Below are positions 25,029-55,220 of a DNA stretch of 64,000 nt, piece after piece. Within the stretch, counting starts at the first letter, position 1, and each line of letters begins with the position of its first letter. Below the pieces are notes generated by a model that worked only from the letters and a program-made list of their open reading frames with translations, was not told the origin of the DNA and searched no databases. The position numbers and the translations under genes are program-made. The stretch is from a bacterium (GTDB lineage Bacteria > UBA8248), in assembly GCA_965261085.1 (NCBI GenBank), contig OZ253442.1, positions 3,264,001 to 3,328,000 on the forward strand. The letters run 5' to 3'.

Positions 25029-28000
25029 TCACATGGAATCTTCCACCACCGACAGCGTGTAGGTGCCTGTATCGTATCCCCAGGCGCCGGCCGCCACATA
25101 GTAGGCGCCGGCTTCCTCCGCCGTGAACGTCACCCGGGCGTTGTAGCCCGCGCCGCCGTCGTCGTCCGTCGTGCCGGGGATGAAGTTTCCGTCCGCGTCG
25201 TGGAGCCCGTACAGATACGGGTCACTCAAGGTGCCGCTCCCGGTCGGCGAGCCCTTGAGGTCGATCCGGTAGGTCGCGCCCGCCTCGAGTTCCACCGCGA
25301 ACCAGTCGCAGTCGAACGAGATCTCGATATCGCTCGTCACCGAGCCGCCCACCTCCACCGCGCCGCTCGTCCCGGTACCCGCCGCCAAATCGTCCGGGAC
25401 CTCAGTCACCGACAGCGTGTAGGTGCCTTTACTGTCATATTCACCGCCGCCGGTGTATACATAGCTGTTGCCGGCCACCAAATAGTAGGTGCCGGCATCC
25501 GTCGCCGTGAACGTCACCCGGGCGTTGTAGCCCGCGCCGCCGTCGTCGTCCCACGTGTAGAGGATACGGACGCCGTCCGCGTCGCGGACCGAGCCCAGAT
25601 GCGGGTTCCTCATGGTGCCGCCCCCGGTCCACGAGCCTTCCAGGTCGATCCGGTAGGTACTGCCCGCCTCGAGCTCGACGGCGAACCAGTCGTGGTCGTT
25701 AAATACATGGATCTTGCCCGTCGCCGAGCCGCCCACCGCAACCCGGCCGGTCGTGGAGGTGTCTTCCGGAAGGTCCTGGCCGTCCGGTTCGGACACACTC
25801 TGTTGCGTCTCCGTAACCTCCTGCGCTTCGGCCACGTCGGTGACGTTGACGGTGACGGTCACCTCGCTGTGCAGGCTGCCGTCACTCGCCCGCACCGTCA
25901 GTTCGTACCGGGTCGTCCCCGACTCGTAGTCCTCGCCCGCGCCCTGGTACGACAGGGCGCCCGTCCCCGGGTCGATGGCGAACAGGCCACCGGAGTCGCC
26001 CGCCTCGATGCTGTAGGTAATCGTCGAGTTTTCCGGGTCCGTCGCCGATACCGCGCCCAACGCTACACTGGCCGCGCCGCCGTCGGCGTTCTCCGCCAGT
26101 GAGAACGCATAGCTCCCCTCCGCGAACGCCGGCGCTTCGGCCACGTCGGTGACGTTGACGGTGACGGTCACCTCGCTGTGCAGGCTGCCGTCACTCGCCC
26201 GCACCGTCAGTTCGTAGCTGGTCGTCCCCGACTCGTAGTCCTCGCCCGCGCCCTGGTACGACAGGGCGCCCGTCCCTGAGTCGATCTCGAACAGGCCACC
26301 GGAGTCGCCCGCCTCGATGCTGTAGGTAATCGTCGAGTTTTCCGGATCCGTCGCAGAGACCGCGCCCAACGCTACACTGCTCGCGCCGCCGTCGGCGTTC
26401 TCCGCCAAGTCGAACGCATAGCTCGTCTCCGCGAACGCCGGCGCTTCGGCCACGTCGGTGACGTTGACGGCCACGGTCACGTCGCTGTGCAGGCTGCCGT
26501 CGCCGGCGCGCACCGTCAGCTCGTAGCTGGTCGTCCCCGACTCGTAGTCCTCACCCACGCCGATGTAGAACACCTCGCCGCTCGTCGCGTCGATCTCGAA
26601 CAGGCCACCGGAGTCGCCCGCCTCGATGCTGTAGCTCACCGCCGCATCTTCGGGGTCCGTCGCCGATACCGCGCCCAGAGACACCCCGTTCGCGCCCCCG
26701 TCCGCGTTCTCCGCCAGTGAGAACGCATAGCTCGTCTGCCCGAACGCCGGAGGACCGTTCACGGTTTTCTGCTGTGCGGTCTGAGGCGAGACGTCCCTGA
26801 CCTCAACCTCGTAGGCGCCGAGTCCGGAGTAGGCGCCGGCGATGATGTAATGTGTGCCGCTCTCGGTCGGGGTGAAGTTCAACCGGCTGTTGTAGCCTTC
26901 GCCTCCATCGTCGTTGGACACGCCCGCAATTCGGCTGCCGTCAGGGCCCTTGATGCCGCGCAGATACGGATCGTTCAGTGTGCCGTCGCCCGTCGGGCTG
27001 CCCCTGAGATCGATGATGTAGGTCCGCCCCGCAACCAGCTCCACCGCAAACCCATCCCGGTCGCCCGTGCTCCCGATCTTGCCGGTAGCGGTGCCGCCGA
27101 CGGCAACCCGGCCAATCGTCGATGTATTCGTGGGAAGGTCCTCGCCGTACGGCTCGGACACGCTCTGCAAGTTTTCCGGGTCGGCCGGCGCGACAATCGT
27201 TTGCTCCGGCACGTCCGTAATGGCGACGCTCACCGCGGCGTCGGCGGTCAGAGCGCCGTCGCTCGCCCGGATCGTCAGGTCGAACTGCGCCGCGCCGGCC
27301 TCGTAGTCCTCGCCCGCCCCGACGTAGAACAGCTCGCCGCTCGCCGCGTCGATCTCGAACGACCCTGACTCGTTGCCGCCCTCGATGCTGTATGCGACCG
27401 TGTCATTGTCCGGGTCCGTGGCCGTAACCGCGCCCAGAGATACCCGGTCCGTGCCCCCGTCCGCGTTCTCCGCGAGTGAGAACGCGTAGCTCGCCTCCGC
27501 GAACTCCGGCGCCTCATCCGTCCCCTCCTGCTGCTGCTGCTCCAAGGCGGCCACCACGTCGGGATTGGCCCCACTCACCCCATAACGCAGTTTGAATTCG
27601 TTGGCGCCTTCTTCCTGCGCTTCCACCCGCACGAAATACGTCCCGGCCAGGAGCGTCTGCGAAATCCACTCGCTCGCCGTCCCCTCCTCCGTGCCGCTGT
27701 AGAGGACGTTGCCTTCGGCGTCCTCCAGAAACAGGTCGGCATTCGCATCCTGTTGGCGCAAACCCAGTCCAACCCTCCTGGCCTCCGAAAGCGTGAAGCG
27801 CCAGTAGTCCACCGAGTCGGAGGAGCCGTCGAGTGATGCTGCCGGAAACTGCAGCCCGGCGAGAGCCGTGATATCGCCGAGATCGGTCGCGCCGCCGCGC
27901 TCGGCGTCCGTATCCACCCATTCCGTCACGCGCACGGTGTACTCGCCCGTCTGATTCGAATGGCCGCGAGCTTCGATATAGTAGGCGCCGGTGGTGGCGG

Positions 28001-28280
28001 CGGTGAAGGTCAACCGGGCGTCCCTGCCGGCGCCGCCATCGTTGTCCCGGGCGCCCGCAATCCGGTTGCCGCCGGCGTCGTAGAGGCCTCGCAGTACCGG
28101 GTCCTGCAGGGCGCCACCGCCGCTGTCGGCTCCCTCCAGGCCGATGACGTAGGTATGGCCGGCGACCAGGTCGACCGCGAACCAGTCGAAGTCATTCGAG
28201 GTCTCGATCTCGCCCGCCGCCGAGCCCCCCACCGCAACCGCGCCGGTAGTCTGCGTATCGGATGTATAGTCGTCAGGCAT
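25029..28280 (-). CDS. Secreted PPC-like plus cadherin-repeat protein, 1083 aa
   Basis: MPDDY start; PPC-like repeats (DWFAVEL, DPYL.G); four cadherin-like repeats (LAENAD, ATDPE, DYE, LTVRASDG, VTDV); no signal peptide. Confidence 0.9.
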   Translation of the reverse strand: MPDDYTSDTQTTGAVAVGGSAAGEIETSNDFDWFAVDLVAGHTYVIGLEGADSGGGALQDPVLRGLYDAGGNRIAGARDNDGGAGRDARLTFTAATTGAYYIEARGHSNQTGEYTVRVTEWVDTDAERGGATDLGDITALAGLQFPAASLDGSSDSVDYWRFTLSEARRVGLGLRQQDANADLFLEDAEGNVLYSGTEEGTASEWISQTLLAGTYFVRVEAQEEGANEFKLRYGVSGANPDVVAALEQQQQEGTDEAPEFAEASYAFSLAENADGGTDRVSLGAVTATDPDNDTVAYSIEGGNESGSFEIDAASGELFYVGAGEDYEAGAAQFDLTIRASDGALTADAAVSVAITDVPEQTIVAPADPENLQSVSEPYGEDLPTNTSTIGRVAVGGTATGKIGSTGDRDGFAVELVAGRTYIIDLRGSPTGDGTLNDPYLRGIKGPDGSRIAGVSNDDGGEGYNSRLNFTPTESGTHYIIAGAYSGLGAYEVEVRDVSPQTAQQKTVNGPPAFGQTSYAFSLAENADGGANGVSLGAVSATDPEDAAVSYSIEAGDSGGLFEIDATSGEVFYIGVGEDYESGTTSYELTVRAGDGSLHSDVTVAVNVTDVAEAPAFAETSYAFDLAENADGGASSVALGAVSATDPENSTITYSIEAGDSGGLFEIDSGTGALSYQGAGEDYESGTTSYELTVRASDGSLHSEVTVTVNVTDVAEAPAFAEGSYAFSLAENADGGAASVALGAVSATDPENSTITYSIEAGDSGGLFAIDPGTGALSYQGAGEDYESGTTRYELTVRASDGSLHSEVTVTVNVTDVAEAQEVTETQQSVSEPDGQDLPEDTSTTGRVAVGGSATGKIHVFNDHDWFAVELEAGSTYRIDLEGSWTGGGTMRNPHLGSVRDADGVRILYTWDDDGGAGYNARVTFTATDAGTYYLVAGNSYVYTGGGEYDSKGTYTLSVTEVPDDLAAGTGTSGAVEVGGSVTSDIEISFDCDWFAVELEAGATYRIDLKGSPTGSGTLSDPYLYGLHDADGNFIPGTTDDDGGAGYNARVTFTAEEAGAYYVAAGAWGYDTGTYTLSVVEDSM

Positions 28281-28289
28281 GGTCTGTCC

Positions 28290-28800
28290 CCTTTCTCAAG
28301 TGAATCCGGGGCAATGGGCGCCCCGGCTCAACTCGTTTCTCCTCGTCGAGGGATCCGGAAGATCCCCCCCAAACACTCACACGCAACGAAAACTCCCCGA
28401 GTTTCGCCCCAGGGTTGCTCTACGGAGCGCTGTAAATTATCAGACCCATTTAAGCACAAAATGTGTGAACTTAGTGTGAGTGTTTGCGACAATTACGTGT
28501 TGTTATCGTGTTATTTTGTATGAATCCCCCTGTGGGGTCGCAACCGCGCCGTGGACAGGGCGTTCCGAAACGATCCGCCGACAGTGGGACAGTGGGACGC
28601 CGTCAGGCTCATTCTCTCAGAATATGACCGCATCGGCGGCGAGCCCGATACCCTCGTCTTGCATGGCCACTGTATCGACTTCACCCTGAGTAGCCGCCGA
28701 AGGCGGCATATCGAAGGGCGCTCCCTTTCGATGCGCCCCGGCGCTCCCTCGATACGGCGCGCGAGCGCGCCTACTCGGGATGAGGGAGGAGTGTCGTCGC
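28290..28800 (-). promoter_or_regulatory. Shared leader plus duplicated flanking block
   Basis: 28385-28700 matches 23065-23370; 28708-28800 matches 24925-25018, giving the IS-free counterpart. Confidence 0.85.
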
Positions 28801-29002
28801 GGGTCGCCGCCCTGTTCGGGACGAGGGAGCCGCGCGGACATGTCGCGCCTAGATATTGATCAAATCCGCTTTCGTTTTGATTGCATATTTCAGAAGGCGG
28901 ATGACGGACGAGACGGGCAAGAATATATTTATAATGATATCAACAGGACAGCGTGATTTTGTGGCCGATGAAATAGCCTTGACGAGGCGATAATACTGAA
29001 AA

Positions 29003-29065
29003 TATCGATAAATTCACGGGGTTTTTCAGTAAATTATTGAAACGCTAAATAATTGATTATAGGCG
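29003..29065 (+). repeat. Partial boundary element
   Basis: CGATAAATTCACGGGGTTTTTC shared with the boundary elements; IHF consensus on the minus strand at 29046-29058. Confidence 0.6.
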
Positions 29066-29125
29066 GTTTATGACGTTTCAGGCCGGAATGGAGGTCATTC
29101 CGGCCATGTAGGAGCGCAGCGCACG

Positions 29126-29220
29126 TCACAGGACCTCTTCCACCGACAGCGTGTAGGCGCCTTCCCGGTCTCCCCCGGCGCCGGCCGCCACATAGTAGGC
29201 GCCGGCATCCTCCGCCGTGA
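29126..29220 (-). pseudogene. Orphan 3' end of a PPC-repeat gene
   Basis: TAEDAGAYYVAAGAGGDREGAYTLSVEEVL*. Confidence 0.8.
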
Positions 29221-29378
29221 GATTCTAACGGCCCGACGTCAAGTTTTCCGGCAGTGTCGCAATGACGAATGGGCCTCATACCGGTAGGCAACCTTCAGAT
29301 CTCCATTTGCAGAAATGACAACGTCGATATCGTAGTCGTCGGGAGTATCTTTGCACTTTTCAATACGGCCGTAGTCCC

Positions 29379-31712
29379 CTATGGGGTTTCCGGTGAGGCC
29401 AAGCGGTAGCCGACACCTCGCACGTTCAGGATGTAGTCCGACCGGGCCGGGTCGCCGCCGAGCTTCCGGCGGAGCTGCTTCACGAAGGTGCGAACGAGGG
29501 CCGGGTCGCCCTGGTCCGGCTCGCTCCATATCTGGCGGACCAGCGAGTCGTAGGTCAGTACCCGTCCCGCGTTCACCGAGAGTATGCGCAGGAGATCGTA
29601 CTCGGTGGCGGTGAGATGCACGAGGCGGCCAGCCACGCTCACCCGCCGCTGCTCGTAGTGGATGGCGAGATCCCCCAGCACGAAGGGTTCCGGTCGGGCC
29701 TGTTTGCGAAGTGCCGCGCGGATCCTCGCCGTCAGCTCAGTCGCCGAGAAGGGCTTGACGAGGTAGTCCGCGGCCCCGCTCTCCAGCGCCCTGGCGATGG
29801 TCTCGTCCCTGCCGTAGGCGGAGATGAAGATGACCGGCAGATCGGCCATCTCGGGGACGCTTTCCATGAGCTCGATGCCGTCGGTGCCGGGCAGTATCAG
29901 GTCGAGCAGGATCAGGCGGGGCTTCTCCGCCGCGATGATGCGCGACACTTCCCGATGGTCGCCGGTGACGAGTGGGGAGAAGCCAGCAGATGCCAGCGCG
30001 TCCCGAACGAAGCGCAGTGTCTGCGGGTCGTCGTCCACCACCAGGATAGGTGTCTTCTGGCTTTCTTCGGGAAGCGAGCCGGACCAGTCCAGGACGGAGC
30101 CGACCTCCACGCCGGCCTCTTCAGCCACCGGGAGCGTGAAGGTGAACTGCGTGCCCAGGCCCGGCCCGCCGCTTGCGGCCCAGATGCGCCCGCCATGGGC
30201 CTCCACCAAGCCCTTGCAGATGGCGAGCCCCAGACCGGACCCCCGAAGCCCGCCTCCACGCTCGTCGCTGCTGAGGCCCGTGTACTTCTGGAACAGGTGC
30301 GGAAGCAGCTCAGCGGGAACACCCCGGCCTTCGTCCGAGACCGAAACCGCGACGTGCAGGCCGTCGCGCACCGCGGCGACCCTGATGGGCGACGACTCCG
30401 GAGAGTATCCCGAGGCGTTGGAAAACAGGTTGTTCAGGACCTGCACGATGCGCCGCCGATCGGCCATCACCCGGGGCAGGTCCTGCGGAAGGTCGATGAG
30501 AATCGTGTGCGTGTTGCCGCTGCTCAGGAACGCGTTCCTGGCCTGGTCCACCGTCCCCGCCACATCCGTGGGCACAGGCGAGACGGACAGCGTGCCCGCG
30601 TTGATGCGGCCCGCGTCCAGCAGGTCGCTGATCAAGCAACGCATGTGATCGGCTTGCTCGTCGATAACACGGAAGAACTGGTCCACCTCGGCCGGATCTA
30701 GTGTCGGCGAGGCCCCCAGCACGGTGGTAGTCGAGCCCTTGATGGCGGCGAGCGGCGTGCGCAACTCGTGGCTCACCATGCCCAGGAACTCCGCCCGCAT
30801 CCGGTCGAGCTCCTCGAGCGGGGCCAGGTCCTGCATGGTGACGACCACCGTCTCGATCTCGTCGGCGGCGGAGCGGATCGGCGTGACGTTGATCAGCATC
30901 CGGATGCTGCGCCCGTCGGGGACCGAGAGCTCGACCTCCGCGGCGCGCAGCGTCTCGGCGCTCGTGATCTCGGCGACGCTGACCTCGCGGCCGTCTGCGA
31001 GCCGGGACGTCAACACGTCGAGCAGCTCTACCGGAGAGCAGCCCGGCATGCGAAGCGCCTCGACGATACGCCGCGACTCCTGGTTGAACATCACCGGATA
31101 GCAACTCTTCGCGTCGAAGACCACGACGCCGACCGGTGAGGTCTCCACCAGGGCCTCGAGGTCGGCACGCACGCGCTGCTCGTCGCGGTGAGTGCGCGCA
31201 TTTGCGATCGCCGTCGCCGCCTGGGAGGCGAACAGCACCAGCAACTCCTCGTCCTCGTCCGTGAACCCGCCGCCCTCCTTCTCGCCCAAGAAGAAGTTGC
31301 CGACGTGAACGCCCCCGTGGCGCATCGGCGTTCCCTGGAACGTCCTGCACGGGATCAGGCCCGGCGAAAGCCCGAGCGAGCGGACGTAGGCCTCCAGGTC
31401 CGCTAGGCGAAGCGGCGCGTCGAGGCCGCGCAGATGCTCGAACAACTGCAACGCGTCGGGCCAGACCGGCATCAGCTGTTCTTGCTCCGGCGTCATGCCC
31501 GAGGCGACGAAGTCCTGCGGCTGGCCGGCCTCGTCGATGGTCGTGATCACGCCGTAGCGGGCGCCAGTCAGCGCGCGGGCGCTTTCCACGATCTCGCGCA
31601 GGACGGTGTCCACGTCGAGGCTCGCGCTGATGCGCAGAATCGCCGCGCTCAGCCTGGAGAACTGCTCCCGTAGCGCGTCGACCTCTCGCGTTAGTTCATT
31701 GCGGTTCTTCAT
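29379..31712 (-). CDS. Soluble hybrid histidine kinase: GAF-PAS-HisKA-HATPase-REC-OmpR winged helix
   Basis: SHELRTPL; N box NLFSNA; DEGRG and GSGLGL; ILVVDDD, LLDL and YLVKPF; LTATEYDLL..KQLRRKL..NVRGVGYR; no TM segment. Confidence 0.93.
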   Translation of the reverse strand: MKNRNELTREVDALREQFSRLSAAILRISASLDVDTVLREIVESARALTGARYGVITTIDEAGQPQDFVASGMTPEQEQLMPVWPDALQLFEHLRGLDAPLRLADLEAYVRSLGLSPGLIPCRTFQGTPMRHGGVHVGNFFLGEKEGGGFTDEDEELLVLFASQAATAIANARTHRDEQRVRADLEALVETSPVGVVVFDAKSCYPVMFNQESRRIVEALRMPGCSPVELLDVLTSRLADGREVSVAEITSAETLRAAEVELSVPDGRSIRMLINVTPIRSAADEIETVVVTMQDLAPLEELDRMRAEFLGMVSHELRTPLAAIKGSTTTVLGASPTLDPAEVDQFFRVIDEQADHMRCLISDLLDAGRINAGTLSVSPVPTDVAGTVDQARNAFLSSGNTHTILIDLPQDLPRVMADRRRIVQVLNNLFSNASGYSPESSPIRVAAVRDGLHVAVSVSDEGRGVPAELLPHLFQKYTGLSSDERGGGLRGSGLGLAICKGLVEAHGGRIWAASGGPGLGTQFTFTLPVAEEAGVEVGSVLDWSGSLPEESQKTPILVVDDDPQTLRFVRDALASAGFSPLVTGDHREVSRIIAAEKPRLILLDLILPGTDGIELMESVPEMADLPVIFISAYGRDETIARALESGAADYLVKPFSATELTARIRAALRKQARPEPFVLGDLAIHYEQRRVSVAGRLVHLTATEYDLLRILSVNAGRVLTYDSLVRQIWSEPDQGDPALVRTFVKQLRRKLGGDPARSDYILNVRGVGYRLASPETP

Positions 31713-32215: not shown

Positions 32216-32228
32216 GGCGCCGCGGACC

Positions 32229-35200
32229 TCACATGACCTCTTCCACCGACAGCGTATAGCTGCCTTCCCAGTATGCCTGGGCGCCGGCCGCCACATAGTA
32301 GGCGCCGGCATCCTGCGCCGTGAATTCCACATAGCTGTTGCGGCCTTCGCCGCCGTTGTCGTCCGTCGTACCGGCGATGAGGTCGCCATTCGCGTCGTGG
32401 ACCCCGTACAGATACGGGTCCCTCAGGGCGCCGTTCCCGGTCGGCGAGCCCTCCAGGTCGATCCGGTAGGTCCTGCCCGCCTCGAGCGTCACCGCGAACC
32501 AGTCACGGTCACCCTCGAATTCGATATCGCCCGTCGCCGAGCCGCCGACCGCCACCGCGCCGCTCGTCCCGATCCCGGCCGCAAAATCGTCCGGGACGCC
32601 GTTCGTGATATCCATCACCGACAGCGTGTAGGTGCCTTCCCTGCTTCCATAAGCGCCGGCCGCCACATAGTAGGTGGCGTCCTCCTCCGCCGTGAAATCC
32701 ACCCGGCTGTTGCGGCCCGCGCCGCCGTCGTCGTCCGTCGTACCGGCGATGAGGTCGCCATTCGCGTCGTGGACCCCGTACAGATACGAGTCACTCAGGG
32801 TGTCGTTCCCGGTCGGCGAGCCCTCCAGGTCGATCCGGTAGGTCCTGCCCGCCTCCAGGGTCACCGCGAACCAGTCGCGGTCGCCATAGATCTCGATATC
32901 GCCCGTCGCCGAGCCGCCCACCTCCACCGCGCCGCTCGTCCCGATCCCGACCGAAAAATCGTCCGGGACATCCTCCACATCCTCCACCGACAGCGTGTAG
33001 GTGCCTTCCCTGCTTCCATAAGCGCCGGCCGCCACATAGTAGGTCCCGGCATTCTCCGCCGTGAACGTCACCCGGCTGTTGGCGCCCTCGCCGCTGTTGT
33101 CGTCCGTCGTGCCGGGGATGAGGTCGCCATTCGCGTCGTGGACCCCGTACAGATACGGGTTGTACAGGGCGCCGGCCCCGGTCCACCAGCCCTCCAGGTC
33201 GATCCGGTAGGTCCTGCCCGCCTCGAGCGTCACCGCGAACCAGTCGTGGTCGCCATAGATCTCGATCTCGCCCGTCGCCGAGCCGTCCACCTCCACCGTG
33301 CCGGTGGTCTGCGTCGTGGCCTCGAAATCGTCCGGGACATCCTCCACATCCTCCACCGACAGCGTGTAGGCGCCTTCCCAGTTTCCCCCGGCGCCGGCCG
33401 CCACATAGTAGGCGCCGGTATCCGCCGCCGTGAACATCACCCGGCTGTTGGCGCCCTCGCCGCTGTTGGCGTCCGTCGTGCCGGGGATGAGGTCGCCATT
33501 CGCGTCGTGGACCCCGTACAGATACGGGTTGTACAGGGTGCCGGCCCCGGTCCACGAGCCCTCCAGGTCGATCCGGTAGGTCCTGCCCGCCTCCAGGGTC
33601 ACCGCGAACCAGTCGCGGTCGCCCCCGGTCTCGATCTCGCCCGTCGCCGAGCCGTCCACCTCCACCGTGCCGGTGGTCTGCGTCGTGGCCTCGAAATCGT
33701 CCGTGACTTCCGCCACCGACAGCGTGTAGGCGCCTTCCCAGTTTCCCCCGGCGCCGGCCGCCACATAGTAGGTCCCGGCATCCTCCGCCGTGAACGTCAC
33801 CCGGCTGTTGGCGCCCTCGCCGCCGTTGTCGTCCGTCGTGCCGGCGATGAGGACGCCTTCCGCGTCGTGGACCCCGTACAGATACGGGTTGTACAGGGTG
33901 CCGTTCCCGGTCGACGCGCCCTCCAGGTCGATCCGGTAGGTACTGCCCGCCTCCAGGGTCACCGCGAACCAGTCGCGGTCGCCCCCGGTCTCGATCTCGC
34001 CCGTCGCCGAGCCGCCCACCGCCACCGCCCCGCTCGTCCCGATCCCGGCTTCGAAATCGTCCGGGACTTCCGTCACCGACAGCGTGTAGGCGCCTTCCCA
34101 GTTTCCCCCGGCGCCGGCCGCCACATAGTAGGTCCCGGCATCCTCCGCCGTGAACGTCACCCGGCTGTTGGCGCCCTCGCCACCGTTGTCGTCCGTCGTG
34201 CCGGCGATGAGGACGCCTTCCGCGTCGTGGACCCCGTACAGATACGGGTTGTACAGGGTGCCGGCCCCGGTCCACGAGCCCTCCAGGTCGATCTGGTAGG
34301 TCCTGCCCGCCTCGAGCGTCACCGCGAACCAGTCGCGGTCGCCATAGATCTCGATCTCGCCCGTCGCCGAGCCGCCCACCGCCACCGCGCCGCTCGTCCC
34401 GGTCCCCTCCTCGAAATCATCCGGGACTTCCGTCACCGACAGCTTGTAGGCGCCTTCCCCGTATACCCAGGCGCCGGCCACCACATAGTAGGCGCCGGTA
34501 TCCGCCGCCGTGAACGTCACCCGGCTGTTGTAGCCCACGCCGCCGTTGTCGTCCGTCGTGCCGGCGAAGCGGACGCCTTCCGCGTCGTGGACCCCGTACA
34601 GATACGGGTTGAACAGGGTGCCGGCCCCGGTCGACGCGCCCTCCAGGTCGATCAGGTAGGTACTGCCCGCATCGAGCTCGACGGCGAACCAGTCGCGGTC
34701 GCCCCCGGTCTCGATCTCGCCCGTCGCCGATCCGCCGACCGCCACCGCGCCGCTCGTCCCGGTCCCCTCCTCGAAATCGTCCGGGACCTCCGTCACCGAC
34801 AGCTTGTAGGCGCCTTCCTGTTCTCTCCAGGCCCCGGCCGCCACATAGTAGGCGCCGGTATCCGCCGCCGTGAAAAGCACCCGGCTGTTGTAGCCCACGC
34901 CGCCGTTGTCGTCCGTCGTGCCGGCGATGAGGACGCCTTCCGCGTCGTGGACCCCGTACAGATACGGGTTGTACAGGGTGCCGGCCCCGGTCCACGAGCC
35001 CTCCAGGTCGATCTGGTAGGTCCTGCCCGCATCGAGCGTCACCGCGAACCAGTCGCGGTCGCCATTGAAGTCGATCTCGTCCGTCGCCGAGCCGCCGACC
35101 GCCACCGCGCCGCTCGTCCCGGTCCCCTCCTCCAAATCGTCCGTGACTTCCATCACCGACAGCGTGTAGGCGCCTTCCCGTTCTCTCCAGGCTCCGGCCG

Positions 35201-36218
35201 CCACATAGTAGGTGGCGTTCTCCTCCGCCCTGAACTCCACCCGGCTGTTGCGTTCCTTGCCGCCGTCGTCGTCCGTCGTGCCGGCGAAGCGGACGCCGTC
35301 CGCGTTGTAGATCCCGCGCAGATACGGGTCCGCCAAGGTGCCGGCCCCGGTCCACCAGCCCTCCAGGTCGATCTGGTAGGTCCTGCCCGCCTCCAGGGTC
35401 ACAGCGAACCAGTCGCGGTCGCCCTCGAATTCGATCTCGCCCGTCGCCGAGCCGCCCACCACCACCGCGCCGCTCGTCCCGGTCTCCGCCGAAAAATCGT
35501 CCGTGACTTCCATCACCGACAGCGTGTAGGTGCCTCTCCTGGTTCCAGAAGCGCCGGTCGCCACATAGTAGGCGCCGTCCTCCTCCGCCGTGAACGTCAA
35601 CCGGCTGTTGTCGCCCGAGGCGGTGATGAGGACGCCGTCCGCGTCGTGGACCCCGCGCAGATACGGGAAGTACAGGGTGCCGGCCCCGCTCTCCGAGCCC
35701 TCCACGTCGATCCAGTAGGTCTTGCCCGCCTCCAGGGTCACCGCGAACCAGTCGCGGTCGCCCACAATCTCGATCTCGCCCGTCGCCGAGCCGCCCACCG
35801 CCACCGCGCCGGTGGTCTGCGTCGTGGCCGCAAAATCGTCCGGGGCGCTGTCCGTGGCATCCGTCACCGACAGCGTGTAGGCGCCTTCCCGGTCTCTCTA
35901 GGCTCCGGCCGCCACATAGTAGGTGGCGTTCTCCTCCGCCCTGAACTCCACCCGGCTGTTGCGGTCCGCGCCGCCGTCGTCGTCCGTCGTGCCGGCGAAG
36001 CGGACGCCGTCCGCGTTGTAGATCCCGCGCAGATAGGGGTTGTACAGGGTGCCGCCCCTGGAATCCGAACCCTCCAGGTCGATCCGGTAGATCCTGCCCG
36101 CCTCCAGGGTTACCGCGAACCAGTCGCGGTCGCTCCTGGTCTCGATCTCGCCCGTCGCCGAGCCGCCCACCTCCACCGCGCCGGTGGTCTGCGTCGTGGA
36201 TGAATAGTCGTCAGGCAT
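32229..36218 (-). pseudogene. Eleven-repeat PPC-like protein (1329 codons) split by one in-frame TAG at 35898-35900
   Basis: ORFs 35898-36218 and 32229-35867 are in the same frame; GCC TAG AGA here versus GCC TGG AGA in a sister repeat. Confidence 0.88.
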
Positions 36219-36484
36219 GGTCCGCCTCCTTTCTCAAGTGGATAAAAAAAGAAAATTATATGCAAATTTATATGAACAATCAAATAAAATATATCACATG
36301 ACGTCCAAAAAATAAACGACAAATCGTCATGCCGAGGGTGTATAGTGCGTATGTAAACTTCCTGTTTTCAACTCGAATCGGGTGATTTCCCGGGAAATGC
36401 GGTGAACGCCCCGGAAACGGCGGCTTTCATCCCATCCCCCTGGGAGAGCGCCGCCGCCGAGTCCTTCGAGTGTCGATTCGAATC

Positions 36485-36600
36485 CGGCGCATGCCCGGCG
36501 AAGACGCGGCCAAACCTGCCTCCATCGCCAACGAACACGGGGTCGGCCACCGCATGGCACGGCGGGACTGGCCCTCACGGCCCGGCCCGCCGGGTTCACC
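36485..36600 (+). pseudogene. OmpR winged-helix 3' remnant
   Basis: RRMPGEDAAKPASIANEHGVGHRMARRD. Confidence 0.7.
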
Positions 36601-36668
36601 GGCAGGGCCTCCCGCGGAGGCCGCACTCTGAGGCCGTACGACAGCTTTCGCGGTCGCCGCCGCGCACC

Positions 36669-39600
36669 TCACATGACCTCTTCCACCGACACCGACAGCG
36701 TGTAGGCGCCTTCCCAGGTTCCCCCGGCGCCGGCCGCCACATAGTAGGTCCCGGCATCGTCGGCAGTGAACTCCATCCGGCTGTTCCAGTCCGTGCCCCC
36801 GTCGTCGGCCGTCGTGCCGGGGAGGAGGTTGCCGTCCGCGTCGTGGAGCCCGCGCAGGTACGGGTCCCTCATGGTGCCGTGCCCTGTGTCATCGCCCTTG
36901 AGATCGATCCGGTAGATCTTGTCCGCCTCCAGGGTCACCGCGAACCAGTCTTGGTCGCCACCGGTCTCGATCTCGCCCATCACCGAACCGCCCACCGCCA
37001 CCGTGCCGTTCGTCCCGGTCCCGGCTTCGTAATCGTCCGGGACGCCGTCCGTGACATCCGTTACAAACAGCGTGTAGGTGCCTGCCTGGTATCCATTATA
37101 AGAGGATACATAACCGCCGGCCGCTACATAGTAGACGGCGTCCTCCTCTGGCGTGAACGTCACCCGACTGTTGTAGACGGCGCCACCATTGTTGTCCGTC
37201 GTGCCGGGGAGGAGGAGGCCGTCCGCGTCGTGGACCCCGCGCAGATACGGGTTGTACAGGGTGCCGCCCCCAGTCCACGAGCCCTCCAGGTCGATCCGGT
37301 AGGTCCTGCCCGCCTCCAGCGTCACCGCGAACCAGTCGCGGTCATCCTCGAAGTCGATCCTGCCCGTCTCCGAGCCGCCGACCTCCACCGCGCCGGCGGT
37401 GTCGGTCCCCGCCGCAAAATCGTCCGGGATTTCCGTCACCGACAGCGTGTAGGCGCCTTCCCAATCTGAATCAGAGCCGACTGCCACGTAGTAGGCGCCG
37501 GCCTCCTCCGCCGTGAAATACACCCGGCTGGTGACGTACCCCGTGCCGCCCTTGTTATCCTCCGTGCCGTCGATGAGGATGCCGTTCGCGTCGTGGATAC
37601 CGCGCACGTACGGGTCGTACAGGGTGGCAAACCTGTTCTCAAAGTCCAGCTTGATCCGGTAGATACCGCCCGCCTCCAGCGTCACCGCGAACCAGTCGCG
37701 GTCGCCGAAGATCTCGATATCGCCCGTCGCCGATCCGTCCACCTCCACCGCGCCGCTCGTCCCGGTTCCGGCCTCGAAATCATCCGGGTCGCCGTCCGTG
37801 GTATCCGTCACCGACAGGGTGTAGGTGCCTACCACGCGTCCATAGCCGCCGGCCGCCACATAGTAGGTGGCGTCCTCCTCCGCCGTGAAATACACCCGGC
37901 TGTTGTAGCCCGCACCTTCGCTGCCGTCCGTGATATCGACGATGAGTACCCCGTTCGCGTCGTAGATCCCTTGCATATCCGGAACGCTCAGGGTGCCGGC
38001 TGCGGTGAAGAAGCCCTCCAGGTCGATCCGGTAGGTCCTGCCCGCATCGAGCGTCACCGCGAACCAGTCGCGGTCGCCCGGGGACTCGATCTCGCCCGTC
38101 GTCGAGCCGCCCACCGCCACCGCGCCGGTCGTCCCGGTCCCCGCATCGAAATCGTCCCGGTACTCCGTCACCGACAGCGTGTAGGTTCCTTTCTCGTTTG
38201 CATAGCCACCGGCAGCCACGTAGTAGGTCCCGGTTTCATCCACCGTGATATACACCCGGCTGTTGCTGCCCGCGCCGCCGTCGTCGTTCGTCGTGCCGGC
38301 GAGGCGGTCGCCGTCCGCGTCGTGGATACCGCGCAGGTACGGGTCACTCAGGTTGCCGGCCCCGGTATCGTAGCCCTCCAGGTCGATCCGGTACCTCTTG
38401 CCCGCCTCCAGTTCCACCGCGAACCAGTCGCGGTCGTTCACGTGTTGGATCGTTCCCCTCGCCGAGCCGCCGACCGCAACCGCACCGGTCGTCCCGGTCC
38501 CCGCCGCAAAATCGTCCGTGTGGGTGTCCGTGACATCGGCCACCGACAGCCTGTAGGTGCCTTCCCTGGTTCCCCAGGCGCCGGCCGCCACGTAGTAGGT
38601 CCCGGTTTCATCCAGCGTGAGCGTCTGCCGGCTGTTGAGGCCGCGGCCGGAATCGTTGACCGTCGTGCCCACGATGAAGAAGTGGTCCTCGTTGTAGACC
38701 CCACGCAGGTACGGGTCCACCAAAGTGCCGGCCCCGGTCCACGAACCCTCGAGATCGATCCGGTATATCCGGCCCGCCTCCAGCTCGACCGCGAACCAGT
38801 CGCGGTCACCCGGGGTCCCGATCTTGCCTGTCGCAGTGTCGCCCACCGCAACCCGGCCGGTCGTGGAGGTGTCTTCCGGAAGGTCCTCGCCGTCCGGTTC
38901 GGACACACTAGCCTCCTGCTGAAGACTGACGTATTCCTCCACATCGGCCACGTCGGTGACGTTGACGGTCACGCTCACGTCGCTGTGCAGGCCGCCGTCG
39001 CTCGCCCGCACCGTCAGTTCGTAGCTCCTCGTCTCCGACTCGTAGTCCTCGCCCGCGCCCCGGTACGACAGGGCGCCCGTCCCCGGGTCGATGGCGAACA
39101 GGCCGTCGGGGTCGCCGGCCTCGATGCTGTAGGTAATCGTCGAGTTCTCAGGATCCGTCGCCTGTACCAGGCCGAGAGAAACAGGGATCGTGCCCCCGTC
39201 CGCGTTCTCCGCCAGTGAGAACGCATAGCTCGTCTCCGCGAACGCCGGCGCTTCGGCCACGTCGGTGACGTTGACGTTGACGGTCACGTCGCTGTGCAGG
39301 CCGCCGTCGCTCGCCCGCACCGTCAGCTCGTAGCTCCTCGTCCCCGACTCGTAGTCCTCGCCCGTGCCCAGATACACCACAAGGCCCGTCTCGGCGTCGA
39401 TCATGAACAGGCCATCGGGGTCGCCGGCCTCTATGCTGTAGGTTATCCTGTCGTTGTCCGGATCTGTCGCGACAACCGGTGCGACGGCGATGCCGAATAA
39501 GGCGCCGTCGGCATTCTCCGCCAGATCGAAGGCGTAGCTCGGCTGCGCGAACGCCGGCGCTTCGGCCACGTCGGTGACGTTGACGGTCACGGTCACGTCG

Positions 39601-42020
39601 CTGTGCAGGCCGCCGTCGCCGGCGCGCACCGTCAGCTCGTACCGGATCGCACCCGACTCGTAGTCCTCGCCCGCGCCCTGGTACGACAGGGCGCCCGACT
39701 CGGAGTCGATGGCGAACAGGCCACCGGAGTCGCCCGCCTCGATGCTGTAGGTAATCGTCGAGTCTTCCGGGTCCGTCGCCGATACCGCGCCCAGAGACAC
39801 CCCGTTCGCGCCCCCGTCCGCGTTCTCCGCAAGCGTGAACTCGTAGGACGTCTGCCCGAACGCCGGAGCTTCGGCCACGTCGGTGACGTTGACGGTCACG
39901 TCGCTGTGCAGGCCGCCGTCGCCGGCGCGCACCGTCAGCTCGTAGCTGGTCGTGCCCGACTCGTAGTCCTCGCCCGCGCCCTCGTACGACAGGGCGCCCG
40001 TCCCTGAGTCGATGGCGAACAGGCCACCGGAGTCGCCCGCCTCGATGCTGTAGCTCACCGCCGCATCTTCGGGGTCCGTGGCCGAAACCGCGCCCAGAGA
40101 CACCCCGTTCGCGCCCCCGTCCGCGTTCTCCGCGAGTGAGAACGCGTAGCTCCCCTCCGCGAACGCCGGAGGACCGTTCACGGTTTCCTGCTGTGCGGTC
40201 TGAGGCGAGACGTCCCTGACCTCAACCTCGTAGGCGCCGAGTCCGGAGTAGGCGCCGGCGATGATGTAATGTGTGCCGCTCTCGGTCGGGGTGAAGTTCA
40301 ACCGGCTGTTGTAGCCTTCGCCTCCATCGTCGTTGGACACGCCCGCAATTCGGCTGCCGTCAGGGCCCTTGATGCCGCGCAGATAGGGGTCGCTCAGCGT
40401 GCCGTCGCCCGTCGGGCTGCCCCTGAGATCGATGATGTAGGTCCGCCCCGCAACCAGCTCCACCGCAAACCCATCCCGGTCGCCCGTGCTCCCGATCTTG
40501 CCCGTCGCCGTGTCGCCGACCGCAATCCGACCGGCAGTGGAGATGTTCGCTGCGAAGTCCTCGCCGTACGGCTCGGATACCGTCTGAGGAGTGTTTTGCT
40601 CGCTCTGCGTGACCAGCGGCTCAACCTCCTCCAGCTCCTGGAGGTCGGTGACGTTTACGGTCACGGTCACGTCGCTGTGCAGGCCGCCGTCACTCGCCCG
40701 CACCGTCAACTCATAGCTCGTCGTGCCCGACTCGTAGTCCTCGCCCGCGCCCTGGTACGACAGGGCGCCCGTCCCCGGGTCGATGGCGAACAGGCCACCG
40801 GAGTCGCCCGCCTCGATGCTGTAGGTAATCGTCGAGTTTTCCGGGTCCGTCGCCGATACCGCGCCCAACGCTACACTGCTCGCGCCGCCGTCCGCGTTCT
40901 CCGCGAGTGAGAACGCGTAGCTCCCCTCCGCGAACGCCGGCGCTTCGGCCACGTCGGTGACGTTGACGGTGACGGTCACGTCGCTGTGCAGGCCGCCGTC
41001 ACTCGCCCGCACCGTCAGTTCGTAGCTGGTCGTCCCCGACTCGTAGTCCTCGCCCGCGCCCTGGTACGACAGGGCGCCCGTCTTCGTGTCGATCGCGAAC
41101 AGGCCACCGGAGTCGCCCGCCTCGATGCTGTAGGTAATCGTCGAGTCTTCCGGGTCCGCCGCAGAGACCGCGCCCAACGCTACACTGATCGCGCCGCCGT
41201 CCGTGTTCTCCGCGAGTGAGAACGCATAGCTCCCCGCCGCGAACGCCGGCGCCTCATTCGCCCCCTCCTGCTGTTGCTGCTCCAAGGCGGCCACCACGGC
41301 GGGATTGGCCCCACTCACCCCATAACGCAGTTTGAATTCGTTGGCGCCTTCTTCCTGCGCTTCCACCCGCACGAAATACGTGCCGGCCAGGAGCGTCTGC
41401 GAAATCCACTCGCTCGCCGTCCCCTCCTCCGTGCCGCTGTAGAGGACGTTGCCTTCGGCGTCCTCCAGAAACAGGTCGGCATCCGCATCCTGCCGGCGCA
41501 AACCCAGTCCAACCCTCCTGGCCTCCGAAAGCGTGAAGCGCCAGTAGTCCACCGAGTCGGAGGAGCCGTCGAGTGATGCTGCCGGAAACTGCGGCCCGGC
41601 GAGCTCCGTGATATCGCCGAGATCGGTCGCGCCGCCGCGCTCGGCGTCCGTATCCACCCATTCCGTCACGCGCACGGTGTACTCGCCCGTCTGATTCGAA
41701 TGGCCGCGAGCTTCGATATAGTAGGCGCCGGTGGTGGCGGCGGTGAAGGTCAACCGGGCGTCCCTGCCGACGCCGCCATCGTTGTCCCGGGCGCCCGCAA
41801 TCCGGTTGCCGGCGGCGTCGTAGAGGCCTCGCAGTACCGGGTCCTGCAGGGCGCCACCGCCGCTGTCGGCTCCCTCCAGGCCGATGACGTAGGTATGGCC
41901 GGCGACCAGGTCGACCGCGAACCAGTCGAAGTCTTTCGAGGTCTCGATCTCACCCGCCGCCGAGCCGCCCACCGCAACCGTTCCGGTGGTCTGCGTATCG
42001 GATGTATAGTCGTCAGGCAT
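36669..42020 (-). CDS. Large secreted PPC-like plus cadherin-repeat protein, 1783 aa
   Basis: Same N-terminal ~250 aa as 25029-28280; six cadherin-like repeats; six C-terminal PPC-like repeats; ends YTLSVSVEEVM. Confidence 0.92.
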   Translation of the reverse strand: MPDDYTSDTQTTGTVAVGGSAAGEIETSKDFDWFAVDLVAGHTYVIGLEGADSGGGALQDPVLRGLYDAAGNRIAGARDNDGGVGRDARLTFTAATTGAYYIEARGHSNQTGEYTVRVTEWVDTDAERGGATDLGDITELAGPQFPAASLDGSSDSVDYWRFTLSEARRVGLGLRRQDADADLFLEDAEGNVLYSGTEEGTASEWISQTLLAGTYFVRVEAQEEGANEFKLRYGVSGANPAVVAALEQQQQEGANEAPAFAAGSYAFSLAENTDGGAISVALGAVSAADPEDSTITYSIEAGDSGGLFAIDTKTGALSYQGAGEDYESGTTSYELTVRASDGGLHSDVTVTVNVTDVAEAPAFAEGSYAFSLAENADGGASSVALGAVSATDPENSTITYSIEAGDSGGLFAIDPGTGALSYQGAGEDYESGTTSYELTVRASDGGLHSDVTVTVNVTDLQELEEVEPLVTQSEQNTPQTVSEPYGEDFAANISTAGRIAVGDTATGKIGSTGDRDGFAVELVAGRTYIIDLRGSPTGDGTLSDPYLRGIKGPDGSRIAGVSNDDGGEGYNSRLNFTPTESGTHYIIAGAYSGLGAYEVEVRDVSPQTAQQETVNGPPAFAEGSYAFSLAENADGGANGVSLGAVSATDPEDAAVSYSIEAGDSGGLFAIDSGTGALSYEGAGEDYESGTTSYELTVRAGDGGLHSDVTVNVTDVAEAPAFGQTSYEFTLAENADGGANGVSLGAVSATDPEDSTITYSIEAGDSGGLFAIDSESGALSYQGAGEDYESGAIRYELTVRAGDGGLHSDVTVTVNVTDVAEAPAFAQPSYAFDLAENADGALFGIAVAPVVATDPDNDRITYSIEAGDPDGLFMIDAETGLVVYLGTGEDYESGTRSYELTVRASDGGLHSDVTVNVNVTDVAEAPAFAETSYAFSLAENADGGTIPVSLGLVQATDPENSTITYSIEAGDPDGLFAIDPGTGALSYRGAGEDYESETRSYELTVRASDGGLHSDVSVTVNVTDVADVEEYVSLQQEASVSEPDGEDLPEDTSTTGRVAVGDTATGKIGTPGDRDWFAVELEAGRIYRIDLEGSWTGAGTLVDPYLRGVYNEDHFFIVGTTVNDSGRGLNSRQTLTLDETGTYYVAAGAWGTREGTYRLSVADVTDTHTDDFAAGTGTTGAVAVGGSARGTIQHVNDRDWFAVELEAGKRYRIDLEGYDTGAGNLSDPYLRGIHDADGDRLAGTTNDDGGAGSNSRVYITVDETGTYYVAAGGYANEKGTYTLSVTEYRDDFDAGTGTTGAVAVGGSTTGEIESPGDRDWFAVTLDAGRTYRIDLEGFFTAAGTLSVPDMQGIYDANGVLIVDITDGSEGAGYNSRVYFTAEEDATYYVAAGGYGRVVGTYTLSVTDTTDGDPDDFEAGTGTSGAVEVDGSATGDIEIFGDRDWFAVTLEAGGIYRIKLDFENRFATLYDPYVRGIHDANGILIDGTEDNKGGTGYVTSRVYFTAEEAGAYYVAVGSDSDWEGAYTLSVTEIPDDFAAGTDTAGAVEVGGSETGRIDFEDDRDWFAVTLEAGRTYRIDLEGSWTGGGTLYNPYLRGVHDADGLLLPGTTDNNGGAVYNSRVTFTPEEDAVYYVAAGGYVSSYNGYQAGTYTLFVTDVTDGVPDDYEAGTGTNGTVAVGGSVMGEIETGGDQDWFAVTLEADKIYRIDLKGDDTGHGTMRDPYLRGLHDADGNLLPGTTADDGGTDWNSRMEFTADDAGTYYVAAGAGGTWEGAYTLSVSVEEVM

Positions 42021-55214: not shown

Positions 55215-55220
55215 TCTCCT

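Follow-up and report, generated by a model that had tools for sequence, protein, structure and literature searches.

Tandem PPC-domain arrays with recombining surface loops, encoded beside PrtD-type secretion operons

The 64,000-nucleotide stretch of bacterial DNA analysed here (the window) carries genes built from tandem copies of a known calcium-binding β-sandwich module, PPC, which has the collagen-binding-domain fold. The proteins are probably exported by a type I secretion system of their own and are apparently an undescribed, large variant of type I-secreted repeat adhesins. Taking the evidence as a whole, we favour the view that they are secreted multivalent PPC adhesins whose diversity arose by ordinary duplication and recombination, and we regard this as probable, though by no means certain. 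We see no sign of antibody-like mutation at work.

With an HMM trained on the repeats, we count 27 copies in the window, 23 of them within 25029-42020, close to the approximately 28 of the initial annotation. They lie at 11252 (1 copy), 25047-28280 (4), 32244-36218 (11), 36690-42020 (8) and 58873-61037 (3); over the whole genome, the same HMM finds 59 copies spread over six loci. The repeat was identified as Pfam PF04151 (PPC; gathering cut-off 25.9 bits), with scores of 244.3 bits in gene gB (10 stretches), 121.3 bits in gC and 96.4 bits in gA. Thus, a domain that had been put forward as possibly undescribed is already a Pfam family, although one without annotation beyond “PPC”; an NCBIfam scan gave gB and gC no family assignment. 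Tandem Repeats Finder describes positions 32244-36183 as a 360-nt unit in 10.9 copies with 87% matches, and the three framework motifs singled out in the initial annotation occur in exact form 21, 10 and 17 times in the window. Framework DNA is alike even at synonymous sites, as had been claimed, in the young gB array (synonymous divergence pS of ~0.12) but not in the window-wide set (~0.28).

Two genes, both on the minus strand, combine the repeats with cadherin domains. The first, gA (25029..28280), encodes a protein of 1083 aa that starts with MPDDY, ends with VEDSM and contains four DxDWF-type PPC repeats, one divergent PPC and four cadherin domains (Pfam Cadherin 7e-50, four stretches; PPC 1.8e-27, five stretches). 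The second, gC (36669..42020), encodes 1783 aa with the C-terminus EEVM, eight DxDWF-type repeats, one divergent PPC and six cadherin domains (Cadherin 1e-74, six stretches; PPC 3e-35, eight stretches). A gA-like gene, gD (58855..61037, minus strand), is the first gene ahead of the secretion operon and is frameshifted into overlapping ORFs 60198-61037 and 58855-60678; the latter, initially listed as a gene, is just its 3′ part. The last 1416 nt at the 3′ end of gA are 99.2% identical to gD. Cadherin (PF00028, gathering cut-off 28.8 bits) scores 167.8 bits in gA (four stretches), 247.5 bits in gC (six) and 96.1 bits in gD (two). The cadherin domains that had been proposed as stalks are interspersed in these three genes but not in gB, where Pfam detects none.

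The gene gB (32229..36218, minus strand) consists of 11 tandem PPC repeats and no other domain. It starts at ATG 36218, which is preceded by a good ribosome-binding site, and is interrupted by an in-frame TAG (35898..35900, minus strand) in loop 4 of repeat 1; the ORF 32229-35867 of the initial annotation was the version shortened by this stop, and the portion from 35867 matches Pfam PPC at 1.2e-73 in ten stretches. Alleles P0007 (12 repeats) and P0025 (8 repeats) lack the interruption. The position of the TAG is occupied by W in repeat 3 and by Y in P0007, and 640 nt including the stop recur with 100% identity in a segmental duplicate of the same genome (G000, 1875998-1876637). A special role for the TAG was considered and rejected: the relative G004 has its TAG in the last strand and not in loop 4, P0007 is intact at the site, and the second copy in the genome is only the identical duplicate. 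On the plus strand, the short gene or fragment gE (11252..12121) carries the N-terminal PPC module of the family with one DxDWF-type repeat at 11252-11605 (Pfam PPC E=2.4e-6, plus a repeat-HMM match) and shares the conserved ~25-nt element ahead of the ATG. What had been taken for a repeat gene at 29126 is merely the 3′-end remnant of a PPC gene (29126..29224, minus strand), recognised by frame translation and a framework motif match at 29141; its ~32 codons comprise the final strands, loop 4 and the EEVL tail with the stop codon. With gB interrupted by a stop and gD by a frameshift, two of the five genes are no longer intact, so that some of the repertoire may be in decay. An IS element adjoins the PPC genes. 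In the explanation that we favour, these genes would encode large, calcium-dependent, multivalent adhesin-like binding proteins made of tandem PPC domains with or without cadherins.

Directly downstream of gD is a secretion operon (53577-58600, minus strand). It encodes a type I secretion ABC permease/ATPase of the PrtD type (56732..58600; NCBIfam TIGR01842, 586.9 bits against a cut-off of 510.15; Pfam ABC_membrane at 26-285 and ABC_tran) that has no N-terminal C39 or C39-like domain, a HlyD-family type I secretion periplasmic adaptor (55221..56735; TIGR01843, 312.3 bits against 208.65; Pfam HlyD_3) and, as third gene, a TolC-like outer-membrane efflux protein (53577..55214; Pfam OEP 1.4e-23), which stays under the NCBIfam TolC cut-off (31.5 vs. 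225 bits). PPC coding sequence immediately precedes all three paralogous PrtD-type ABC/HlyD operons of the genome. Of 67 related loci from other phyla, each no longer than 12.4 kb, 24 also have ABC/HlyD homologues, for the most part with 70-87% identity.

No signal peptide was found in the PPC proteins, which start with MPDDY and have no hydrophobic stretch at the N-terminus. All ten of the genome’s own PPC genes encode an acidic-hydrophobic tail that ends 3-7 residues past the last strand, and among 120 homologue C-termini, 56 read EEV[LIM] and 105 have an acidic residue plus hydrophobic residues. Glycine-rich RTX repeats ahead of the C-terminal signal are common, although not universal, among type I substrates; Pfam found no match to them (HemolysinCabind) in gA, gB or gC, while some relatives do have them (e.g., P0024, P0046 and P0091), and the C-terminus of some RTX-bearing relatives is DFIF or DFLF. 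PrtD-class substrates are described as carrying an acidic and hydrophobic motif at the extreme C-terminus that must be free, in a source that also calls the role of such motifs disputed (PMC2642768). The tails found here fit this motif partially: the acidic pair is followed by two hydrophobic residues, where the motif has three. The PPC genes are thus physically linked to a transporter and share a C-terminal motif, and these two observations, together with the lacking signal peptide, make export, as claimed in the initial annotation, very probable. The proteins would be synthesised without a signal peptide and leave the cell in one step through the dedicated PrtD-type system, which would recognise the free acidic-hydrophobic C-terminus (EEVM, EEVL or EDSM).

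The AlphaFold2 model of the repeat (pLDDT 98.1) was aligned with known structures by VIA-align. The model matched ColH s3 with Z 12.5 and an rmsd of 2.4 Å over 106 residues, ColG s3b with Z 12.4 and the PPC domain of the B. anthracis collagenase with Z 11.6; the top Foldseek matches were the same collagenase CBD/PPC structures. The β-sandwich nature of the repeat, proposed at the outset, is supported as that of a binding-type module. A functional collagen-binding domain of the ColG/ColH type has a calcium site made up of acidic residues in the N-terminal linker and a D-x-D motif, and binds triple-helical collagen via conserved surface tyrosines. Since the sequence identity between the repeat and the collagen-binding domains is merely 13-20%, collagen binding cannot be carried over to the repeats. 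Residues D4, D30 and D32 show little or no variation among 126-509 copies. Model residues 3-118 align with ColG 900-1006, and by linear offset the D-x-D of the repeat lands at ColG ~927-930, which we take to be calcium ligands. On the ColG numbering that we assume, the hot-spot positions fall in or beside variable loops 3 and 4, and these two loops presumably lie roughly at the ligand-binding places of ColG and of the Clostridium perfringens enterotoxin C-terminal domain. Judging from strand order, the four loops and the conserved Asp calcium motif probably share one end of the sandwich. The proteins would probably fold outside the cell once calcium is bound by D4, D30, D32 and the DDxGG loop, which are the conserved Asp motifs. 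Ligand contact would involve the four loops on the calcium side of the sandwich, with host matrix (collagen, spongin), glycans or other cells as candidate ligands.

The most variable columns of the repeat alignment are the four loops named in the initial annotation, with an entropy of 3.5 bits at position 28 and of 2.6-3.2 bits at positions 52, 59, 84/86 and 107-111, and insertions likewise fall in the variable loops. The concentration of variation in four loops stands to this extent, but the linker (5-12) and positions 42, 45, 59-60, 64-75 and 90-99 vary as well. Nonsynonymous changes per codon number 36 in the four annotated loops vs. 8 in the strands. Compared with the rest of the domain, the 14 hypervariable positions are enriched in W (3.9x), R (2.0x), Y (1.5x) and F (1.3x); these four residues make up 26% there vs. 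14.6% elsewhere in the domain, in agreement with the richness in W/Y/F/R noted originally, and S, Q and N are likewise enriched. The sets of loops are hugely diverse and are not conserved between genomes: 52 copies contain 49 distinct four-loop combinations, one of which is common to other genomes.

Recombination among the repeats is clear. The four-gamete test fails for 48% of informative site pairs, with Rmin = 20 within 354 nt, and pairs less than 10 positions apart are incompatible less often than in shuffled order (none of 2000 permutations reached the observed value). Three alleles with 8, 11 and 12 repeats, 31 repeats in total, contain 9-18 variants per segment in 29 distinct combinations, and a single loop-4 variant recurs in 10 of the 31; the surface loops have been reshuffled by recombination. 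Parts of gC were also found in 20 rows from nine sequencing studies, no RNA run among them. In contigs from four runs of four studies, the gC pieces are just 150-750 nt long and many joints between repeat units occur in X4 and X7; paralogues, strains or other organisms may be their source. We propose that tandem and segmental duplication was followed by frequent recombination between stretches of near-identical framework DNA, which would reassort a pool of loop variants and alter copy number.

The words “hypervariable, CDR-like” used in the initial annotation suggest a dedicated diversifying mechanism, such as a diversity-generating retroelement (DGR) or similar targeted mutator that writes the diversity into the loops. 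An invariant scaffold with variable patches does superficially resemble the products of such systems. An examination of the reverse transcriptase genes of the genome and of the template/adenine pattern revealed no DGR signature. The genome has just two RVT_1 genes (1.150 and 1.695 Mb). Both contain a maturase domain of the group II intron type, and their distance to the nearest PPC locus exceeds 70 kb in each case. Adenines are not favoured as sites of variation: the fractions of variable sites are similar for the four bases (A 0.35, C 0.36, G 0.37, T 0.28), and 39 adenines are invariant. Loop variants are shared as blocks between repeats and alleles, and the in-frame stops found are not specific to loops. 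In addition, the variable positions of the window are those of the family as a whole (r = 0.92 with 457 copies from other phyla). Programmed hypermutation was therefore rejected as an explanation, and we consider it extremely improbable.

The variable end of the sandwich could alternatively be a structural interface: as in the extender regions of RTX adhesins, the domains would be joined into a rigid rod by junctions made up of end loops, calcium sites and the N-terminal linker of the next repeat. Loop variation would then reflect co-adapted neighbours, and any ligand would be bound by the sheet faces or by the cadherin or N-terminal modules. The linkers joining the repeats are merely 2-6 residues long, and strand order suggests that the chain exits a repeat at the far end from the four loops and joins the following one at the loop/calcium end; should the repeats form a head-to-tail stack, the junctions may partly cover the variable end loops. 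Calcium bound in the linkers is described as stiffening the tandem β-sandwich repeats of RTX adhesins (PMC7493085). However, interfaces are normally conserved and not the most variable positions, the terminal repeats are equally variable, and the occurrence of 29 combinations in 31 repeats, with free recombination of 5′ and 3′ halves and of neighbours, would break co-adapted pairs. This makes a purely structural cause of the variation improbable in our view.

Selection was assessed at the codon level, as the initial annotation had suggested, with a divided outcome: the gB loops exceed a dN/dS of 1 by every method (about 1.8 to 4, depending on the method), but 22 external arrays lie at about 1 or lower and none is significant. 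In gB, the minimum-event count gives 1.83 for the loops (P=0.054), the pairwise estimate for structure-defined loops is 2.9 (bootstrap 1.8-5.1), and the loops of the initial annotation reach 4.1. By minimum-event counts, the gB loops carry 55 nonsynonymous and 9 synonymous changes vs. 26 and 14 in the strands (Fisher P=0.016), and the bottom loops carry 13 and 0. Tree-based counts over 52 copies of the genome give 0.53 for strands, 1.15 for structure-defined top loops (P=0.045) and 1.48 for the annotated loops; the cadherin repeats of the same genes have values of 0.34-0.63. In the event test, none of the 22 external arrays was significant, and their pairwise loop dN/dS was 0.13-1.5, mostly about 1 or lower, with 0.13-0.34 in the arrays of three cultured marine bacteria. 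Positive selection at single sites was rejected: 3 of 118 sites (14, 86 and 111) had a nominal P<0.05, which is no more than expected by chance, and none would survive correction. The contrast in variation between loops and strands is evident, while a loop dN/dS above 1 is borderline, method-dependent and not robust, and is suggestive only.

These values bear on whether the diversity is adaptive at all. A young tandem array of a loop-tolerant β-sandwich may simply drift in its unconstrained loops, while duplication and gene conversion keep the framework alike; the proteins may then be calcium-stiffened spacers or a bulk surface coat. The agreement of variable positions with the family-wide ones, the loop values near 1 in most arrays, the 1.15 of the top loops and the failure of any site to survive multiple testing would all be expected from such neutral turnover, and the pseudogenised gB and gD, the gene fragments and the neighbouring IS element are consistent with a family in flux. 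Neutral turnover fits less well with the gB loops, which lie above 1 whichever method is used and include the 13N/0S of the bottom loops, with the lower cadherin values in the same genes, or with the enrichment of aromatic residues and Arg at the variable positions, which is typical of binding surfaces. Moreover, since the loops average ~1 while including invariant residues, some loop sites must lie above 1. We consider neutral turnover unlikely as the whole explanation, but it is the alternative that we take most seriously. In the adhesin explanation that we prefer, the loops would evolve nearly unconstrained (dN/dS at or somewhat above 1) and the strands under purifying selection.

This is a very large family: a search with a single repeat retrieved 8247 cluster representatives (50% identity clusters) with a threshold of E<=0.001 and 1296 with one of E<=1e-30, and as many as 33 repeat copies occur in the protein of one relative. 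Among 40 related genomes searched, just one has the repeat (E<=1e-10), and matches of up to 75% identity are found in MAGs of many phyla, a pattern that we count as spread between phyla. Most of the close relatives are MAGs with sponge-related names; the family is also present in the cultured marine bacteria Rhodovulum, Aliisedimentitalea and Pseudomaricurvus. The substrate gene and the transporter would move jointly between phyla, mostly among bacteria that are sponge-associated by record title. The literature searched contained no mention of PPC arrays combined with a dedicated secretion system and a conserved C-terminal tail, although supplementary domain tables may list PF04151, and PPC is absent from a survey of fibrillar adhesins.

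The family thus joins a collagenase-type binding fold to a type I exporter of its own and to a conserved C-terminus that would serve as a simple tag, and is strongly enriched in sponge-associated genomes, with evidence of inter-phylum transfer. We offer tentatively, as a rather doubtful further step, that the horizontally mobile cassette of PPC array and PrtD secretion genes is a symbiosis-associated combinatorial recognition system. If so, framework recombination would continually reassort four calcium-proximal loop cassettes and alter repeat number, and a strain-specific multivalent repertoire would be displayed or released, with matrix or cells of the host, phages or neighbours as targets. 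Such a system would be the bacterial equivalent of variable receptors assembled from cassettes, across at least 10 phyla of sponge-associated bacteria. Should the loops set specificity, the proteins would be good candidates for symbiont attachment to, or recognition by, an early-branching animal host, and the repeat could serve as a small, calcium-dependent scaffold in which four loops tolerate change. Should they not, the family would still be a clear case of concerted evolution and loop drift in a repeat protein.

The collagen-binding domains of ColH and ColG (s3, s3a and s3b) share with the repeats the Pfam family, the fold (Z 12.4-12.5, rmsd 2.4 Å over 103-106 residues), an N-terminal linker with acidic residues and the D-x-D motif; the PPC domains of collagenases bind collagen (PMC6168687). 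Loops 2 and 3 are longer in the repeats of the window, which occur as arrays (at most 11 copies here, as many as 33 in relatives) without an accompanying protease and would be exported by type I secretion and not by Sec. Large size, lack of a signal peptide, tandem calcium-binding β-sandwich repeats, a gene beside an ABC/adaptor/outer-membrane operon and an export signal at the C-terminus (putative in the PPC proteins) are features common to the PPC proteins and known type I-secreted repeat adhesins, among them SiiE and RTX adhesins such as LapA and MpIBP. The proteins of the window have no RTX nonapeptide block, however, their transporter is of the PrtD type without a C39-like domain and not of the LapB/HlyB type, no N-terminal retention module is recognised, and the repeats are PPC, not BIg, and differ in their loops, unlike near-identical spacers. 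Pfam and NCBIfam scans revealed none of the LapA-type features (retention module, BIg extenders, RTX block and C39-like transporter). The PPC proteins would thus resemble the RTX/LapA-type giant adhesins in their working but are not members of that group.

Like the substrates of PrtD/AprD/TliD-class exporters, the PPC proteins are encoded beside a TIGR01842 transporter and have an acidic-hydrophobic extreme C-terminus. Those substrates are 50-60 kDa enzymes with a glycine-rich β-roll ahead of the signal, whereas here we find non-enzymatic repeat proteins of 100-190 kDa, in which the last PPC domain abuts the tail. With the mosaic genes of antigenic variation and with lamprey VLR, the arrays share an invariant framework DNA that serves as recombination substrate and reassorts variable cassettes; they differ in that no silent donor cassettes, dedicated recombinase or expression-site logic were found, and in that reshuffling is seen between repeats and alleles over evolutionary time, as opposed to within a cell lineage. 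Finally, the cadherins of gA, gC and gD and the prevalence of sponge-named MAGs among the close relatives recall the eukaryote-like and adhesion-domain proteins (cadherin, fibronectin III) of sponge symbionts, where cadherin domains are described as enriched in sponge microbiomes and laterally transferred between symbionts (PMC10947273).

Three large genes encoding proteins with the ~120-aa PPC domain (Pfam PF04151) are located on the minus strand of window positions 25029–42020: gA (25029–28280, 1083 aa), gB (32229–36218) and gC (36669–42020, 1783 aa). The gB start is the ATG at 36218, preceded by a GAGAAAGG ribosome-binding site; an in-frame TAG at 35898–35900 shortens the listed ORF to 32229–35867. 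Between gA and gB are found a hybrid histidine kinase/response regulator gene (29379–31712) and the remnant of a PPC gene 3′ end (~32 codons, ending at 29126). Two related PPC genes, gE (11252–12121) and the frameshifted gD (58855–61037), lie outside this region. An HMM built from the repeats retrieved 59 copies at six loci of the 4.27-Mb genome, 27 of them in the window. As can be seen from Pfam scans, gA, gC and gD carry cadherin (PF00028) “stalk” domains and gB carries no cadherin domain.

A ~25-nt element that contains the ribosome-binding site (consensus roughly AT-T/C-N-ACTTGAGAAAGG-N-R-R-C-R-GACC) is common to all five PPC genes of the window immediately upstream of the ATG (36219–36243, 28281–28305, 42021–42045 and 61038–61062, all minus strand; 11227–11251, plus strand). 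The gA, gC and gD genes share ~170 nt of leader, instead of which gB has an AT-rich stretch in a genome of 65% GC. A ~60–100-nt sequence just 3′ of the gA stop codon (24870–25028) recurs with the same pseudo-translation 5′ of gA (28617–28841) and 3′ of a PPC gene at 1.069 Mb (genome position about 1069560), and could represent either a common 3′ element or the scar of a duplication. Genes for exported proteins are dense across the 64-kb window and include those for two proteins with RTX (HemolysinCabind) repeats, 290 and 521 aa long (20516–23022, minus strand), and a 1260-aa autotransporter (14061–17843, plus strand). The PPC fragment gene gE is directly preceded by an ORF (10159–11139, plus strand) that encodes a tyrosinase central domain, and has a LuxR-type regulator gene (12622–13764) downstream. 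The GC content is 48–49% at positions 1–6000 (tyrosyl-tRNA synthetase, MFS transporter) versus 55–70% beyond.

The initial annotation assigned the variation among repeats to four hypervariable loops. These are indeed the most variable columns, and insertions are located there as well. With structural classes defined independently by the strands of the repeat model, tree-based counts on 52 non-redundant genome copies gave 8.0 nonsynonymous changes per codon in strands, 25.4 in structure-defined top loops and 36.0 in the four annotated loops. Thus, variation is concentrated in these loops but not confined to them, as positions 5–12, 42, 45, 59–60, 64–75 and 90–99 vary too. The entropy profile of this genome correlates at r = 0.92 with the profile obtained for 457 copies at 67 loci across many phyla, so the variable positions are a property of the family. 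The loop sets differ between genomes, as the initial annotation implied: out of 42 distinct loop-4 pentamers among the 52 copies, five are also found elsewhere, and one of 49 four-loop combinations is shared with other genomes.

The pairwise Nei–Gojobori dN/dS for the 11 gB repeats was 1.36 overall, 4.08 in the annotated loops and 1.06 elsewhere, or, by structure-defined classes, 2.93 in loops (bootstrap 1.82–5.07) and 0.74 in strands, though pairwise figures count old splits repeatedly and minimum-event counts are more sober. The latter gave 55N/9S for top loops (ratio 1.83, P = 0.054), 13N/0S for bottom loops (P = 0.035) and 26N/14S for strands (ratio 0.66), with loops differing from strands (Fisher P = 0.016). 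To control for codon bias (88% GC3), cadherin repeats encoded by the same genes were used; these had dN/dS of 0.34–0.63, and 1 of 45 pairs exceeded 1, compared with 48 of 55 in gB. Across the 52 genome copies, the tree-based dN/dS was 1.15 in top loops (P = 0.045); the value of 1.48 in the annotated loops (P = 1e-4) is circular, because those sites were picked after the variation had been seen. Just 3 of 118 single sites were nominally significant in a site-wise test. In 22 arrays of other genomes, loop dN/dS ranged from 0.13 to 1.5, with none significant, and strand values from 0.13 to 0.7; arrays of three cultured marine bacteria are under clear purifying selection. Loop dN/dS is above 1 in gB by each method, but falls short of significance in its event-based top-loop test and in the external arrays. 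We conclude that the loops are nearly unconstrained and that some loop sites are probably under positive selection, for which gB is the strongest, yet not decisive, case.

The gB repeats are mosaics. Among informative site pairs, 48% fail the four-gamete test (Rmin 20 within 354 nt), and the compatibility of adjacent sites exceeds that of 2000 out of 2000 site-order shuffles. Public metagenomes contain two close gB alleles, P0007 (12 repeats, about 89% identity) and P0025 (8 repeats, about 87%). Together, the three alleles comprise 31 repeats, with just 9–18 variants per segment in 29 different combinations; a loop-4 variant present in 10 of these repeats pairs with several loop-1 and loop-3 variants. 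Segmental duplication is ongoing: the last 1416 nt of gD are 99.2% identical to the gA end, and a stretch at 1.876 Mb matches the 5′ end of gB at 100% identity. A transposase gene with DUF772 and DDE domains (23422–24864, plus strand), 165 nt from the gA 3′ end, may be related to the gA/gD duplication. The family is not an antibody-like hypermutation system; its diversity arises by duplication and recombination, together with loops under weak constraint and possibly positive selection. A retroelement origin is excluded as far as testable here. Elsewhere in the genome, a reverse transcriptase ORF (C1 1694504–1696252; L002 1291–3039) combines RVT_1, group II maturase and C-terminal RNase H domains, an unusual set for a group II intron protein from bacteria.

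The products of all full PPC genes begin with MPDDY, and none has a hydrophobic N-terminal segment. Three same-strand genes follow gD: an ABC permease/ATPase of the PrtD type (TIGR01842, 587 bits, lacking a C39-like domain), an HlyD adaptor (TIGR01843) and an outer-membrane efflux protein. Three paralogues of the ABC/HlyD pair are present in the genome, each beginning immediately 3′ of a PPC coding sequence, and in 24 of 67 related loci of other organisms the transporter is found within about 6 kb, mostly at 70–87% identity. An acidic-hydrophobic tail, with the stop codon 3–7 residues past the last strand, ends each of the genome's 10 PPC genes; among 120 homologues, 56 terminate in EEV[LIM] and 105 in an acidic residue with hydrophobic residues after it, while RTX-carrying relatives end in DFIF, DFLF or DLLA. 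An extreme C-terminal motif of this kind is described, as one of debated role, for substrates of the PrtD-type transporter class (PMC2642768). The putative type I export is therefore well supported by gene linkage.

Searching 1.84 billion cluster representatives with a single repeat retrieved 8247 matches at E ≤ 0.001, of which 1296 reached E ≤ 1e-30. At E ≤ 1e-10 the repeat was present in just one of 40 related genomes searched, one of the 22 of the same genus. MAGs labelled Binatia, Alphaproteobacteria, Nitrospirales, Dehalococcoidia, Acidimicrobiia-type, Gemmatimonadota, Latescibacterota and Entotheonella contain copies with up to 75% identity. Many of these records bear sponge-related names, and a few matches come from cultured marine bacteria. 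The PrtD-type ABC protein, at 70–87% identity between MAGs assigned by label to different phyla (L018–L081), is about as conserved as the repeats of its substrate, which suggests that substrate gene and exporter were transferred together. Sponge symbionts are described in PMC10947273 as enriched in cadherins, with lateral transfer among them; literature searches found no published description of PPC arrays.

The AlphaFold2 repeat model, based on an alignment of 126 family members, has a pLDDT of 98.1, with strands at 20–25, 32–38, 43–49, 61–67, 88–93, 98–106 and 112–117. Beta-bridges at residues 73 and 79, together with the alignment to the ColH sequence, suggest that segment 72–79 crosses the sandwich, in which case successive strands would alternate in direction. 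Loops 26–31, 51–60, 80–87 and 107–111 would then lie at one end with D30/D32 and the DDxGG segment, and positions 39–42, 68–71 and 94–97 at the opposite end. VIA-align matched the model to ColH s3 (Z 12.5, rmsd 2.4 Å, 106 aligned residues), ColG s3b (12.4), the B. anthracis collagenase PPC domain (11.6), PliG (10.8), the DeCLIC N-terminal domain (10.2) and the C. perfringens enterotoxin C-terminal domain (about 8). Model residues 3–118 align to ColG 900–1006, and 5–118 to enterotoxin 204–316. By a linear offset ignoring gaps, D30 lands near ColG 927, and the residues which we take to be binding hot spots (ColG Y970, Y994 and Y996; enterotoxin Y306, Y310 and Y312) would land in or beside loops 3 and 4. 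The best PDB sequence match of the DDDGG-x-G-x-NS...YY segment (model residues 71–109) is the N-terminal domain of DeCLIC, a calcium-modulated channel (E = 6e-4, 25% identity to the model), which hints at a common calcium-loop motif.

The initial description of the repeats was largely right and its interpretation half right. The family is almost certainly exported, putatively by its dedicated type I system, with a predicted calcium-dependent binding or adhesion role. It represents a known domain in a very large, little-known architecture; the collagenase PPC domains, described as collagen-binding (PMC6168687), share just 13–20% identity with the repeat.
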